Shown piece by piece: positions 15,470 to 36,601 of a stretch of 64,000 bases of DNA. Position numbers and translations under genes: made by a program. Source of the stretch: Escherichia virus TH54. The notes beneath the pieces were generated by a model. The model was not told the DNA's origin. It did no database searches and saw only the letters and a program-made list of their open reading frames with translations. Where the stretch lies: sequence record MT446420.1; one strand, given 5' to 3'. Numbering within the stretch: position 1 is the first letter of the stretch; each line of letters opens with the position of its first letter.

Positions 15470-15530
15470 TGTATTCTCCTCAGTAGTTGATGGGATAATA
15501 GTACACCCTTTTTATGAGGATGTAAACCCC
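15470..15530 (-). promoter_or_regulatory. early promoter-like cassette
   Basis: GTTTACAT -35-like plus conserved leader. Confidence 0.45.
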
Positions 15531-19385: not shown

Positions 19386-19441
19386 GATTATCTCCTTTTG
19401 TTTGATGGGATAATCATAACTCATTTCAATCTGCTTGTACA
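19386..19441 (-). promoter_or_regulatory. early promoter-like cassette upstream of regB
   Basis: GTGTACA...conserved leader. Confidence 0.45.
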
Positions 19442-20255: not shown

Positions 20256-20532
20256 TAATTAATCGCACATCCTGGTCATACGTCAGGAGGCTACGAGTTA
20301 TAATACCCTTACATGGTCCAGAAATAAATTCCAGGGTAAAGTAAGGAACCAACTTCATCAAGCGAATACTCGGAGCAGTGCAACGAAATCTGGACCCAAT
20401 AAAAGGTCCAGACAAAAACACATACTCAAAGAAATTTGCTTTATTAAAGATTTCAAAATTCTTTACGAAATCTTCTGACCTAACCTTTGGAATAAAATAG
20501 ATTTGGTCAAAAAGCTCTTCATGGGTCATCAT
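20233..20532 (-). CDS. hypothetical protein, 99 aa
   Basis: ORF track. Confidence 0.5.
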   Translation of the reverse strand: MMTHEELFDQIYFIPKVRSEDFVKNFEIFNKANFFEYVFLSGPFIGSRFRCTAPSIRLMKLVPYFTLEFISGPCKGIITRSLLTYDQDVRLISDWKKYV

Positions 20533-21074
20533 TGCATTCCTATCACAAAGAACAGTGGACGTGTGGTTTGATTGGTTTCTTCACATGATGCACGACAGCA
20601 ATGTTGCACCACCTTTATATGGGCATCGTAAATTTTATCCATATCCGGTGTTTTAATAGGTTCATCAATTATATACAGAATACGTGAAAGTGATAATCCA
20701 CGGAATTTGCATGCAGTATTACCAATAAAACTACGAACAGAATCAGTGTACAAACGATACTTAATACTTTCTGTATGGTTATTAAAATATTCCTTTCTGA
20801 TTGCAGTAGCCGAAACATTAGCATATGCCGTGTTATTAGACAAAATAACAATAGAACCGCCATCAGCTAACCATTCCGTAGCAAAAATGGATACCGCTTT
20901 AGTTTTACCGGATTGGCGCCCGCCATCAAGTTTTAAGGTGCAGCATTCTTTAAACAGGGTTTGTGAATCGGGTACATAAAACCCACTATTACAAATGTGT
21001 TCTACTCTAGCATCAGAATGGTTTGCAAAAGCATTCATCAGGGATAGATAACTACCGGTTAAAAACGTTTTCAT
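20529..21074 (-). CDS. P-loop NTPase-like protein
   Basis: Walker A GGRQSGKT. Confidence 0.6.
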   Translation of the reverse strand: MKTFLTGSYLSLMNAFANHSDARVEHICNSGFYVPDSQTLFKECCTLKLDGGRQSGKTKAVSIFATEWLADGGSIVILSNNTAYANVSATAIRKEYFNNHTESIKYRLYTDSVRSFIGNTACKFRGLSLSRILYIIDEPIKTPDMDKIYDAHIKVVQHCCRASCEETNQTTRPLFFVIGMQ

Positions 21075-21238
21075 AATTGTCTCTTTTTAAGTTGTGGGCC
21101 GTTCCTTGGCACATTAATTCATCCATGTATCCGAATGTAAACCCCTTACCGCACTCGGGCTCGACCTTATTACAGGTAGGGAAAGGTCCATCACTCAGAG
21201 GACGCGACGTTCATGAGGAGAGGGTCGGTTTGCCTTTA

Positions 21239-21538
21239 TTAAAAAGAACCAGAGCCTTTAATTGTGTTCTGGCGACCTTTATTTTCTAATTCAGAATGGT
21301 CGATTTCGTATGCTTGTGCTACACCAAAGGCCTTTTTAACTTTAGCTAAAGAACCTTTAGATGTAACAATATTAAAAGTATTACCTTTAGTAAAATCAAC
21401 CAAATCCACTTGTACACCCTGTTTACCGAGGCTTGCTACAATAGCATCAACATATTGTTGGTCTAAATTACCCTGAACCCCAATTTGAAATGCTTTAGGA
21501 GCTTTGACTTCAGTAATAAATTCTTGATAAGTTTTCAT
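21239..21538 (-). CDS. internal-protein-like, capsid targeting sequence MKTYQEFITE
   Basis: T4 IP-type CTS at N-terminus. Confidence 0.8.
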   Translation of the reverse strand: MKTYQEFITEVKAPKAFQIGVQGNLDQQYVDAIVASLGKQGVQVDLVDFTKGNTFNIVTSKGSLAKVKKAFGVAQAYEIDHSELENKGRQNTIKGSGSF

Positions 21539-21594
21539 TTATTCGCTCCAAGTTGATAGGATAATTATACACTATCCCATCATAAAGTAAACAG
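21539..21594 (-). promoter_or_regulatory. early promoter-like cassette (GTTTAC, TATAAT inside palindrome)
   Basis: GTTTAC...GGGATAGTG-TATAAT-TATCCC. Confidence 0.5.
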
Positions 21595-21858
21595 TTATGC
21601 TTTACCGCCAGAAACAATACCAAAGGTCTCAAAGTCCCATTCAATATCGTCAACATCAACTTTCTTACCAGCAACCACGAATGCGATTTCGCGACGTTTT
21701 GCATAGGTGACAATTTCTTTACCATCACCACCAAAGAAAGAATAACCATTGCGCTTCATGGTGCCAAAGTCTTCAGCATCACCGGCGAAGGCGCGGACTT
21801 TAAAAGCACCGGTAGGAGCTTTAGCAGATTCAGTAATAAATTCTTGATAAGTTTTCAT
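21595..21858 (-). CDS. internal-protein-like, CTS MKTYQEFITE
   Basis: CTS; paralog of 34932..35231. Confidence 0.8.
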   Translation of the reverse strand: MKTYQEFITESAKAPTGAFKVRAFAGDAEDFGTMKRNGYSFFGGDGKEIVTYAKRREIAFVVAGKKVDVDDIEWDFETFGIVSGGKA

Positions 21859-21871
21859 AATGTCTCTTTAA

Positions 21872-22186
21872 TTACTCTTTAGGGAAATCACGCAAAAATG
21901 CATCATAAAGTTTATTACCAATGCGACGGAATGCTTTTGCCGCATGAACGTTATCCGGATTTGCAATTTTAATCTGCATTACATGACTACCAGCCCATGA
22001 TTTGGCTTCATCATAATAGCCTTTAATTTCTTTAATAGTCTTACGTTTTCCACCAGGGCCATCAACAGTAATTTTCCACGAACCCGTGCTCGTTTCACTT
22101 GGTGGGGTTAATTGTTCAATCCAGACATAACCACCTTCAACACGTTTTTGGGTAGATTCAGTAATAAATTCTTGATAAGTTTTCAT
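21872..22186 (-). CDS. internal-protein-like, CTS MKTYQEFITE (start trimmed)
   Basis: CTS. Confidence 0.75.
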   Translation of the reverse strand: MKTYQEFITESTQKRVEGGYVWIEQLTPPSETSTGSWKITVDGPGGKRKTIKEIKGYYDEAKSWAGSHVMQIKIANPDNVHAAKAFRRIGNKLYDAFLRDFPKE

Positions 22187-22234
22187 TTTATATTCCATTG
22201 TTTGGTTGATAAAATCATTATACAACCTTTTTAG

Positions 22235-22651
22235 TTAAGCGTACACAGCTTTCCCATAGTATTTGTACCAGGTAGGCTTTTGAGAAATTTTCTCATTCAG
22301 TCTGGCTTGACTGATTTCAATTGACCAGATTGATGGTTGATAATCATTTTTCCATTCATCAGGAATATCACTTAAATCTTGGGTAGAAATATCTTTTATG
22401 TTAAACCCTCGCTTTAAACATTCTGCAATAAGTTCTTGATGACGGTTTTTAAGGAACAAAAGTTTATCATAAAAGAAGGTAACATGACCAGTCCCTAAAA
22501 GAAAAGATGATGGGATTTTAAAGTCAGAAACCTTTTTACCATTTTGCACATGCTTACGAACAGCACCAAACACGCGAGGAAGTTCACGATATTCAGCCAT
22601 AAGATGTTGGTCAGCGAGTTCAGATACCAGGGTTAAATTAATGCGAGTCAT
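22235..22651 (-). CDS. denV: endonuclease V (pyrimidine dimer DNA glycosylase)
   Basis: 138 aa, near-identical to remembered T4 DenV. Confidence 0.95.
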
Positions 22652-22706
22652 GTTTGTTCTCCGTAGTTGATAGGGTCATTATAACCCTATCATTTGGAGA
22701 TGTACA
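22652..22706 (-). promoter_or_regulatory. early promoter-like cassette
   Basis: GTGTACA...ATAGGGT-TATAAT-GACCCTAT. Confidence 0.5.
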
Positions 22707-33991: not shown

Positions 33992-34377
33992 TCACATGTT
34001 CCTTCATCAACAATAGTATGTGTATTGGCATTGACAATCTGCCACCAGTCAAAACGGTTGGAACCATAACAAGGTTTATTCTCGTTTTCTTTAATGATAA
34101 CGCGCAGTTCATCTTCAGTCGCAGCCTTTGCGATTAAGTCAGCATAACCGCCACGAGGATAATAGCTATCACCAGCAAAGAGCAAAAAGTTTGTTTTGAT
34201 ATTCTTGAATTCTTCAAGAGTGATAACTGTTCCACCAGGTTGAACAATATCTACATAACTATATCCTAATTTCTGTGCTTCGTTTACCGCTTCAAGCAGG
34301 GTGTCATGTGCCCATCCAATTTGACAATCTGGTTTTTCAGATGGATTTGCCTGATAATCCGCGTACACTTTATACAT
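33988..34377 (-). CDS. hypothetical protein, about 129 aa
   Basis: ORF track, start trimmed. Confidence 0.55.
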   Translation of the reverse strand: MYKVYADYQANPSEKPDCQIGWAHDTLLEAVNEAQKLGYSYVDIVQPGGTVITLEEFKNIKTNFLLFAGDSYYPRGGYADLIAKAATEDELRVIIKENENKPCYGSNRFDWWQIVNANTHTIVDEGTCE

Positions 34378-34378
34378 T

Positions 34379-34564
34379 TTACTCACCTTTGGAGATTTTA
34401 TCCATAACAAAAGAGATTGAACCAATTAAAAATGCAACTACTAAAGAGATTATATTCTCAGAAGTTGAAAGCATATTCAACATAAAGCCAGCAAACATGC
34501 TAAAACCAAAAGCGGTAACAGCAACAAGGGCAGTAACATTTCTAATTAATTCGCAACGTTTCAT
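34379..34564 (-). CDS. small membrane protein, 61 aa
   Basis: two TM helices; promoter cassette upstream. Confidence 0.5.
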   Translation of the reverse strand: MKRCELIRNVTALVAVTAFGFSMFAGFMLNMLSTSENIISLVVAFLIGSISFVMDKISKGE

Positions 34565-34621
34565 TTTATTCTCCTCAGTAGTTGATGGGATAATTATACG
34601 CTATCCCATTCAAATGTACAC
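34565..34621 (-). promoter_or_regulatory. early promoter-like cassette (ATGGGATAGCG-TATAAT-TATCCCAT)
   Basis: conserved element. Confidence 0.5.
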
Positions 34622-34876
34622 TTATTTTTTAGGGATACGATAGTAACGCATCTCAACATCTTTCTGCTTGTGCCACTTTTTGATAAGGTCTTCAGAACCT
34701 TTAATGGTAACGATGTCATAGCGACCATCATGCGATACTTCAGCACTTAACTGCATGAAGTTGTCTAATGAACGGCGGAATTCTTCATTAGAAAAACTGC
34801 CACGCGGGGAACCAACATAAGCAAACTCAACTTTTGCATCTGCGGCTTCGTTAATAAATTCTTGATAAGTTTTCAT
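34622..34876 (-). CDS. internal-protein-like, CTS MKTYQEFINE
   Basis: CTS. Confidence 0.8.
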   Translation of the reverse strand: MKTYQEFINEAADAKVEFAYVGSPRGSFSNEEFRRSLDNFMQLSAEVSHDGRYDIVTIKGSEDLIKKWHKQKDVEMRYYRIPKK

Positions 34877-34931
34877 TAGTAGCTCCAGTAGTTGATGGGA
34901 TAATTATACTGCAACTATCCCATCGCGTACA
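34877..34931 (-). promoter_or_regulatory. early promoter-like cassette
   Basis: conserved element. Confidence 0.45.
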
Positions 34932-35231
34932 TTACATTTTTGAACCACGAATTACACCATAAGCGGCGAAGTCGTCAGAAATATCTTTAGGAGAGTTCTT
35001 ACCAGTTTCAATGAAGGCAATGCTTGACTTCTGACTAAAAGAGGTAATTTTGTTATAGTTGGAGTCAAGGAAGGTATAACCATTTTTACGCAGCTGGTCA
35101 AAGTCTTCAGCGTCGCCTTTACCTTTGAAGTCAACCCATTTGTAGGTGTTTTTCTTCTGAAGGCCCAGAGGCCAGGTTTTTGCTTCTGCCAGGTAATTGT
35201 TTTCTACCAAAAATTCATGAAAAGTTTGCAT
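34932..35231 (-). CDS. internal-protein-like, CTS MQTFHEFLVE; paralog of 21595..21858
   Basis: CTS; shared GDAEDF...NGY.F motif. Confidence 0.75.
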   Translation of the reverse strand: MQTFHEFLVENNYLAEAKTWPLGLQKKNTYKWVDFKGKGDAEDFDQLRKNGYTFLDSNYNKITSFSQKSSIAFIETGKNSPKDISDDFAAYGVIRGSKM

Positions 35232-35239
35232 TTGAAATC

Positions 35240-35512
35240 CTATTTTAGATAAATTGCATATTTTTTATAACCAGCCGTCTCATGACGGAGACCCTTGTCA
35301 TTGGCAAAACGCTCAATGTTATTAATTTGGTTCTGGTCAAGTTCTGAAATGTCAAACGCGAAAAAGTTGCGTTTGTTGCCAATTGTTATATGGTCAGTTA
35401 AGTCAATGCTATACAGGTGATTGATATTGTCAATCATAGCTTTGACTGCTTTACTAATTTTTACTTCTTCATTCAGTTGGGACTCGTTGAAAAATTCATT
35501 GAAAGTTTTCAT
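35240..35512 (-). CDS. internal-protein-like, CTS MKTFNEFFNE
   Basis: CTS. Confidence 0.75.
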   Translation of the reverse strand: MKTFNEFFNESQLNEEVKISKAVKAMIDNINHLYSIDLTDHITIGNKRNFFAFDISELDQNQINNIERFANDKGLRHETAGYKKYAIYLK

Positions 35513-35520
35513 AAGAAACC

Positions 35521-35853
35521 TTATTTATAAAGTTTTGCCAGTTCTTTACGTCCGCGAGCAGACATAATAAATTGTTCATCGCCAATTTTAAAATAAGCCA
35601 TACCGCCGTCAACAGCGATACCAATTTCTTTAGTACCTTCTTTGCCTTTCCACTTGCCACCAGATTTCAGGACAGCTTCAACTGCAGCTTTGGAATATTT
35701 GGACGTTTGAAAACGTTCATTACCAATCTGAAAGAAAACACCATCTGCATTTTTGGTTAAACCAAATTTCAGAGAGCCTTCACTATCATCAATTGATTTG
35801 GTCTCATTGATGGCGGATTCGGCTAAAAACTCGTTGTAAGTCTTGATGTTCAT
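35521..35853 (-). CDS. internal-protein-like, CTS MNIKTYNEFLAE
   Basis: CTS; start trimmed. Confidence 0.75.
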   Translation of the reverse strand: MNIKTYNEFLAESAINETKSIDDSEGSLKFGLTKNADGVFFQIGNERFQTSKYSKAAVEAVLKSGGKWKGKEGTKEIGIAVDGGMAYFKIGDEQFIMSARGRKELAKLYK

Positions 35854-35913
35854 TTTAACTCCGTTTGTTCGTTGGTGTAGGAACATAATACTGCACCTAC
35901 ACTCATTTGTACA

Positions 35914-36601
<688 letters not shown>

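Follow-up and report, generated by a model that had tools for sequence, protein, structure and literature searches.

The stretch of DNA analysed here, which we call the window, comprises 64,000 nt of Escherichia virus TH54 (MT446420.1). It carries three tandem small genes, each starting with MKTYQEFITE, within exactly the bounds that the earlier note had given (21,239 to 22,186), and all three open reading frames lie on the minus strand. The genes and their flanks are as follows, where a slash marks the predicted cleavage point.

22186-21872, minus strand: ipA, an Ip10 orthologue; open reading frame of 104 aa; predicted mature form 94 aa, pI 9.6, cleavage ITE/S
21858-21595, minus strand: ipB; open reading frame of 87 aa; predicted mature form 77 aa, pI 6.2
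21538-21239, minus strand: ipC, an Ip7 orthologue; open reading frame of 99 aa; predicted mature form 89 aa, pI 9.3
22235-22651, minus strand: denV (endonuclease V), flanking the array upstream
20529-21074, minus strand: vs.8 homologue, flanking the array downstream

Genes in the window are ordered nudE, e, denV, ip10, ipB, ip7, vs.8, whereas the order in T4 is e, ipIII, ipII, denV, vs.8. Thus, the array stands one slot downstream of ipIII/ipII of T4. It had been stated earlier that T4 has IPII and IPIII at this position, but the T4 pair lies between e and denV and the array between denV and vs.8. The e-denV interval, which is the slot of ipIII and ipII in T4, is just 55 nt long in the window and has no ip gene; VR20 and phage 212 have a further ip gene there. 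The spacing between ipA and ipB is 13 nt, and the two genes are probably co-transcribed. The 164-nt spacer between ipC and vs.8 (21075-21238) has no Rfam match and folds no better than its shuffles (z 0.13), and it was not taken as an RNA gene.

The window belongs to a Gaprivervirus (Tevenvirinae). The 1.2 kb around the array are 98.5% identical to Escherichia phage CJ20, and 94-96.5% identical to Shigella phage SP18 and the coliphages VR20, VR25 and VR7, all of which are Gapriverviruses. Near-identical array genes are already annotated in SP18, VR7, VR20 and CJ20 (Ip10, Ip7 and internal head protein). The annotation of relatives gives the outer genes as ip10 and ip7, and ipB as either 'internal head protein' (RefSeq) or 'hypothetical'.

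At the DNA level, the start of each gene is a direct repeat. The 29-nt sequence ATGAAAACTTATCAAGAATTTATTACTGA occurs in three exact copies, at 22186-22158, 21858-21830 and 21538-21510, which lie within the following tag repeats.

22154-22186, minus strand: tag repeat copy 1, 33 nt, codons 1-11 of ipA
21826-21858, minus strand: tag repeat copy 2, 33 nt, identical to copy 1 (ipB)
21509-21538, minus strand: tag repeat copy 3, 30 nt identical to copies 1 and 2 (ipC)

A degenerate search for the coding sequence of the tag returned exactly four sites in the 64-kb window, the fourth at 34876-34848, and chance matches to tag DNA numbered 0 in 100 dinucleotide-preserving shuffles. The fourth copy is identical at 27 of the 29 nt, with AAC in place of ACT in codon 9 (Thr9 to Asn). 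The earlier claim of essentially identical tag DNA in four genes is therefore exact for the three array genes but not fully so for the fourth. In T4, ipII and ipIII have identical tag DNA too (32 nt), plus 15 nt upstream. When IMG/VR was scanned for exact matches to the first 24 nt of the tag, 22 open reading frames with at least eight unrelated cargo types were recovered.

As a peptide, the tag differs from MKTYQEFIAE of T4 IPII and IPIII solely at position 9, which is free to vary. Mutagenesis of T4 IPIII by Mullaney and Black mapped targeting mainly to residues 4 and 7 and processing to residues 8 and 10, and Asp at position 10 blocked processing (PMC9026906). Y4, F7, I8 and E10 are retained in all three array tags, and each has the prohead-protease site I8-T9-E10 with Glu, not Asp, at position 10, as expected from the capsid targeting sequence with an L/I-x-E cleavage site that had been proposed for these genes. 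The ITE motif is also invariant across 16 Ip7 homologues. The P1' residue is Ser in ipA, Ser in ipB and Val in ipC; Val11 of the window ipC is atypical, since Ala is near-invariant after this cleavage site.

Both ip loci of the window lie at hyperplastic IP positions of T-even phages, the array in the e-denV-vs neighbourhood and the other just downstream of 57B. A single tagged gene had been noticed at the latter (34848-34876). That gene is present, but the locus holds four tagged genes, three of which were overlooked.

34622-34876, minus strand: second-locus gene 4, 84 aa, MKTYQEFINE (the fourth gene of the earlier note); phrog_8111 'internal virion protein'
34932-35231, minus strand: second-locus gene 3, 99 aa, MQTFHEFLVE, an ipB paralogue
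35240-35512, minus strand: second-locus gene 2, 90 aa, MKTFNEFFNESQLNE, tag MKTFNEFFNE; phrog_7673 'internal head protein', E 1.7e-56
35521-35853, minus strand: second-locus gene 1, 110 aa, MNIKTYNEFLAE; phrog_3966, like ipA, E 6e-34

The product of ipB is 33% identical to that of the 99-aa gene starting at 35231 (E 6e-16). The tags of second-locus genes 1-3 have diverged from MKTYQEFITE, and in these three genes, as in T4 ipI, the pattern of an aromatic residue at position 4, Phe at position 7 and L/I/F-x-E is written with other codons. Thus, selection acts on the peptide, and not on the DNA alone.

Downstream of the tag the array products have little to connect them. BLAST and profile-profile comparison of cargo against cargo align the first 10-21 residues only (13-15 columns in the profile-profile case) and find nothing common beyond the tag, in agreement with the earlier reading of three different cargo domains. 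PHROG lumps ipB and ipC together in phrog_2667; we rejected this grouping and treat the two as unrelated cargos, because their profile-profile likeness is limited to the tag. Full-length identity of the ipA product with Ip10 of Shigella phage SP18 is 100%, and ipA matches phrog_3966 (E 2.5e-32). The ipC product is 88-98% identical to proteins of the Ip7 cluster and has a BFVD match to Ip7. The PHROG matches of the tagged proteins include 'internal head protein'. Homologue clusters number 2 for ipA, 5 for ipB and 20 for ipC, all of them from T4-like phages.

Beyond these phages, searches returned very little. An exhaustive HMMER search with ipA against 1.84 billion representatives gave one true relative, which is 97 aa long and itself tagged; matches to a 478-aa tandem-repeat open reading frame (7 stretches) and to an RTX-repeat protein (3 stretches) were rejected as summed weak repeat matches. 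A Pfam scan of all seven tagged proteins produced sub-threshold noise only. Sequence searches of the PDB with ipA, ipB and ipC found no meaningful relative, the matches to HLA and flagellin (E 0.01-0.9) being set aside as chance. For no array cargo did we find likeness to T4 Ip1, Ip2 or Ip3 in sequence or fold, or a solved structure of known function resembling it, and the fold of ipC is ferredoxin-like in a generic sense only. The differences that separate the array genes from their relatives are mostly synonymous, the exceptions being two ipB comparisons. For ipA, 14-16 nt differ in synonymous codons and 2-3 in non-synonymous ones (16 and 2 against VR20). Thus, these are real genes under purifying selection.

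Related phages carry different subsets of the three genes (A, B and C for ipA, ipB and ipC) in the denV-vs.8 interval.

A-B-C: the window and VR20
A-C: VR26
B-C: ECML-359 and phage 212
A-B: UPEC01
C alone: RZ

In pairwise alignments, the A-C, B-C and C-alone forms break inside the tag repeat. In ECML-359 and phage 212, the sequence ahead of ipA continues at the tag into the cargo of ipB. RZ has this upstream block of ipA in front of ipC, and since codons 8-9 there are still of the ipC type, the crossover must lie within the first 23 nt. A chimera, MKTYQEFITESAKVPKAF, occurs in VR26, where the ipB upstream region and the first 39 nt of ipB are fused to the remainder of ipC. The window ipC itself reads ATTACT at codons 8-9, the ipA/ipB type, where ipC of VR20, ECML-359, RZ and phage 212 reads ATCACA, which marks a short patch of gene conversion. 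In UPEC01, the loss of ipC begins at a promoter/stem-loop element of the kind described below and has an unclean junction, and we rejected it as a clean tag-mediated or element-mediated deletion. The second locus is likewise mosaic among relatives, and the pairing of locus 1 with locus 2 seen in the window does not occur in the closest genome, CJ20, which covers just 88% of locus 2. On alignment, the junctions of relatives support recombination at the tag. The combinations they carry, the position of the junctions in tag DNA and the VR26 chimera all speak for the cassette exchange that the earlier note had put forward.

Promoter-like elements with stem-loops accompany the array.

21548-21591, minus strand: early-promoter-like TTTACT-N16-TATAAT in a 12-bp stem-loop, upstream of ipC; -14.9 kcal/mol, z -4.6
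22200-22240, minus strand: the promoter and stem-loop element again, in a weaker copy, ahead of ipA

The block upstream of ipA travels, in relatives, with whichever cargo stands first. The underlying motif runs GT(G/T)TAC..., GTATAAT, TATCCCATCAAC, GGAG, ATG, and has 8 copies in the window, all on the minus strand, among them one ahead of each of denV, ipA and ipC, and two in the second locus. Its -10-like TATAAT lies inside a 9-13 bp stem-loop (z against shuffles -2.8 to -6.1). 'IP-associated' elements of T-even phages, credited to Repoila et al. 1994, combine T4 early promoters with AT-rich stems (PMC2839356), and the window motif fits the description of the PeSL or 'IP-associated' elements of T4-type hyperplastic regions (Repoila 1994; Arbiol 2010; Comeau 2014). 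The indels of the array that are bounded by the capsid targeting sequence, however, break in tag DNA and not in the elements. An exact late promoter, TATAAATA, was not found in locus 1; one starts at 35529, ahead of the second-locus gene at 35512.

Finding such constant DNA beside early-type promoters raises the question of whether the 30 nt are kept for a nucleic-acid reason, as a translation-initiation, regulator-binding or recombination site, with the products being ordinary, unpackaged early proteins. Exact identity over 29-33 nt exceeds what conservation of the peptide requires, relatives have zero tag substitutions in ipA and ipB while the rest of each gene is ~5% diverged, and promoters of the early type do stand ahead of ipA and ipC. 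However, the peptide pattern persists with other codons in three second-locus genes and in T4 ipI, the residues retained coincide exactly with the functional ones on the T4 map (PMC9026906), and gene conversion, of which the patch in the window ipC is an example, explains the DNA identity. We regard this account as very improbable, and read the 30 nt primarily as the coding sequence of a capsid targeting peptide.

The window ends at genes 19/20, without the gene for the gp21 protease, and the packaging and processing machinery was read from VR20, which is 94-97% identical to the window over the segments they share. VR20 encodes a 212-aa gp21, gp22, gp67, gp68 and Inh, and the LTE/A maturation site of gp23 is kept. 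By analogy with T4, the three array products are very probably packaged and processed internal proteins of the T4 type. It is likewise from T4 that we infer their probable packaging, cleavage and injection, and a putative anti-defence activity.

Each newly made product would carry a capsid targeting sequence of 10 residues at its N-terminus, and this tag would bind the scaffolding core of the assembling prohead. The gp21 prohead protease would then cut after Ile8-Thr9-Glu10, leaving mature proteins of ~94, 77 and 89 residues inside the head, from where they would be expelled into the host with the DNA. Once injected, they would most likely neutralise first-line defences of the host, such as its nucleases, and each cargo would probably have a target of its own. 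The tag DNA, as a direct repeat of 30-46 nt at every gene start, probably serves as a homology patch for phage recombination, so that cargos are gained, lost and reshuffled as units while a working tag and the upstream promoter are kept. Overall, we consider the best explanation of the locus, and a likely one, to be three T4-type ip genes whose products are packaged, cleaved, injected and most likely anti-defence, and which recombine at their tags; the T4 analogy and the junctions of relatives give this reading good support. Points against it are the near-neutral pI of ipB, Val11 in the window ipC, the failure to find an exact late promoter ahead of locus 1, cargos unlike T4 Ip1-3, and a genus in which gene 42 and glucosyltransferases are missing at gene level.

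An anti-restriction role of internal proteins is the present view in the literature (PMC3012670, PMC12373910). They have been described as diverse defence proteins with only the tag in common (PMC3012670), and more than 30 variants have been reported (PMC2839356). Each of T4 Ip1, Ip2 and Ip3 inhibits a distinct GmrSD type IV restriction enzyme, Ip2 and Ip3 having been added to the list in 2025 (PMC12373910). Reasoning from these T4 proteins, we think it rather probable that the array products are anti-defence effectors.

The products could instead be packaged but generic, a basic filler that condenses or neutralises DNA in the head or aids its ejection and does not inhibit anything specifically. 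In their mature forms, ipA and ipC are small, basic proteins, like the ~1000 IP copies in T4 DNA (PMC3012670), the fold of ipC is of a merely generic kind, and relatives thrive with one, two or three of the genes, which suggests interchangeability. However, ipB is near-neutral, and unrelated cargos that are each under purifying selection fit specific functions better than bulk charge. In addition, all three T4 internal proteins have specific GmrSD targets (PMC12373910). We consider a purely generic role quite unlikely, and continue to favour injected proteins with specific anti-defence targets.

According to a suggestion in the 2025 report, every Ip-locus protein has GmrSD variants as its target (PMC12373910), and the array products might accordingly be injected inhibitors specifically of GmrSD-family type IV enzymes, as proposed for both T-even Ip loci. 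The one-to-one blocking of GmrSD variants by T4 Ip1-3, with the same predicted for other Ip-locus proteins (PMC12373910), argues for this, as does the presence of an Ip7 homologue in JS98, which carries an RB69-like cytosine hypermodification cluster. Against it, the GmrSD targets of the T4 proteins act on glucosyl-hmC DNA, and the genes for such DNA were not found here. Searches by tblastn with T4 gp42, T4 beta-glucosyltransferase and VR20 Td recovered no second ThyA-family gene, and thus no ThyA-family dCMP hydroxymethylase, and no beta-glucosyltransferase, in the window and the rest of the VR20 genome, which together represent a whole genome. An alpha-glucosyltransferase is absent from the VR20 annotation, the annotation being the only source for this enzyme. 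Where T4 has b-gt and 42 between uvsX and imm, and JS98 an RB69-like arabinosylation cluster, ~32 Gapriverviruses, including CJ20, have a compact uvsX-imm interval with only one small open reading frame. The same absence has been reported for the genus, in which alc, denB, denA and gene 56 are kept and an unknown base is suspected (PMC8056088, PMC12115623). The cargos also have no similarity to Ip1-3. As the genus has, at gene level, no known hydroxymethylcytosine pathway, GmrSD is not an obvious target and the analogy with T4 is weakened on this point. We consider it doubtful that the GmrSD family is the specific target class of the array products, and prefer to leave the reading at anti-defence effectors in the wider sense.

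Seven tagged proteins are kept in a phage with no known cytosine-hypermodification gene, and on this ground we tentatively raise the possibility that Ip10, ipB and Ip7 may target something other than glucosyl-hmC-dependent GmrSD enzymes. Such targets could include a nuclease for the suspected unknown base of the genus, or a defence against unmodified incoming DNA. If this is true, T-even internal proteins would have a wider range of targets than is known at present. Injected internal proteins have proved to include specific anti-restriction factors, and the three array proteins are ready to be screened as candidates on wild strains of Escherichia and Shigella.

Among the closest known systems are the Ip7/Ip10 genes of Gaprivervirus and Dhakavirus phages (VR7, VR20, SP18, JS98, MX01), from which the window genes differ by points only; VR20, VR7, VR25, SP18 and CJ20 also have the gene order of the window. 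Within the Ip7 cluster, the window ipC differs by Val11 and by its tag DNA of the ipA/ipB type. The array resembles T4 IPII/IPIII in 9 of 10 tag positions, the I-x-E motif, small mature proteins and tandem genes near e/denV. T4 internal proteins are basic, and ipA and ipC are alike in this whereas ipB is not. Unlike T4, the window has three genes and not two, at a site downstream of denV and with no cargo similarity, and its phage is, at gene level, without the hmC and glucosylation genes. The proposed scheme of delivery is also that of the T4 protein IPI* (Ip1), an inhibitor of the GmrSD of E. coli CT596 (a propeptide ending ITE/A, packaging and injection). The locus of IPI* is 57B-proximal, and in the window this same locus holds the four tagged genes.

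The locus, the tag and the recombinational plasticity are thus T-even biology that has been described since 1994, and the exact genes are already annotated in near-identical genomes. The earlier interpretation of the locus matches established knowledge. Only the identity of the targets of the array products holds some potential for novelty. What our analysis adds to the known picture are the base-level crossovers and the gene-conversion patch inside tag DNA, and a host genus without the DNA modification on which the known targets of internal proteins depend.

The earlier note had placed a fourth tagged gene outside locus 1, the minus-strand array of ipA, ipB and ipC. That gene is indeed present but does not stand alone, as it belongs to a second internal protein (IP) locus with four genes bearing an N-terminal capsid targeting sequence (the tag):

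34622-35886, minus strand: second IP locus, four tagged genes, downstream of 57B
35914-36369, minus strand: 57B homologue, adjoining this locus on its upstream side

Tags have diverged in three of these four genes (MQTFHEFLVE, MKTFNEFFNE and MNIKTYNEFLAE), and in the MKTFNEFFNE gene cleavage probably follows LNE, at residue 15. Two members have paralogues in locus 1: the gene starting at 35231 pairs with ipB, and that starting at 35853 with ipA, via phrog_3966. The 57B homologue carries an anti-CBASS protein Acb1 annotation in one relative, EAWsc9. As it abuts the second IP locus, known and candidate counter-defence genes are thus neighbours.

Closest relatives differ between the two loci. Locus 1 (compared as 21100-22300) is closest to CJ20, at 98.5% over its full length, whereas CJ20 covers just 88% of locus 2 (34300-36100), which is closest to EAWsc9 and ECML-359; these two phages carry about 290 additional bases there. 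Thus, we conclude that this phage is mosaic at its IP loci.

A promoter-like motif occurs eight times in the window, against 0.03 copies expected by chance:

487-505, 15486-15504, 19401-19419 and 21552-21570, minus strand: promoter-like motif copies
22205-22223, 22666-22684, 34581-34599 and 34891-34909, minus strand: promoter-like motif copies

The layout runs from a -35 site (GTGTACA/GTTTACT) to GTATAAT, TATCCCATCAAC and a GGAG Shine-Dalgarno sequence, with the -10 element inside a stable stem-loop of 9-13 bp whose stem sequence varies from copy to copy while pairing is preserved. These are probably the known T-even 'IP-associated' PeSL-like elements, which combine an early promoter and a stem-loop.

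Two details of locus 1 concern the N-termini of ipC and ipA:

21506-21508: ipC codon 11, Val after the predicted cleavage site
22187-22198: in-frame upstream ATG of ipA, four codons 5' of the ipA start, giving MEYKMKTYQ...

Of 16 Ip7 homologues, at least 90% have Ala immediately after the predicted cleavage site, whereas ipC of this phage has Val there and shows conversion of the adjoining tag codons to the ipA/ipB type. The SP18 Ip10 record takes the upstream ATG as its start, giving 108 aa. However, MKTYQ is the more likely start of ipA, since every other tagged gene begins at its tag and since this upstream block is found ahead of ipB or ipC in relatives.

Comparison of the uvsX-imm region, which lies outside the window (VR20, L029:13689-14568; T4, L030; JS98, L034), showed that Gapriverviruses lack the glycosyltransferase cluster and gene 42 (dCMP hydroxymethylase or 5hodCMP synthase family) found in T4 and JS98. 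A second ThyA-family gene was found nowhere in the window plus the rest of the VR20 genome. Gapriverviruses retain alc, denB, denA and gene 56, and are suspected to contain an unknown non-canonical base (PMC8056088, PMC12115623).

The tag DNA of locus 1 also heads a 364-aa, extremely basic protein (MKTYQEFISEAKKCWPGYKKKG...) on metagenomic T4-like contigs (IMG/VR loci L017, L018, L020, L021 and L024). T4 IPIII, with 193 aa the largest of the classical internal proteins, is roughly half as long.

Two intervals lie near locus 1:

21075-21238: non-coding spacer from ipC to vs.8, 164 nt, G+C about 49%, high for this genome
22652-22706: e-denV slot, 55 nt, one promoter/stem-loop element and nothing else

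The spacer is conserved in RZ and replaced in part in UPEC01; it had no match in Rfam, and its predicted fold was not better than those of shuffles. The e-denV slot, just 55 nt here, holds ip5 in VR20, a tagged 89-aa gene in phage 212, and both ipIII and ipII in T4.
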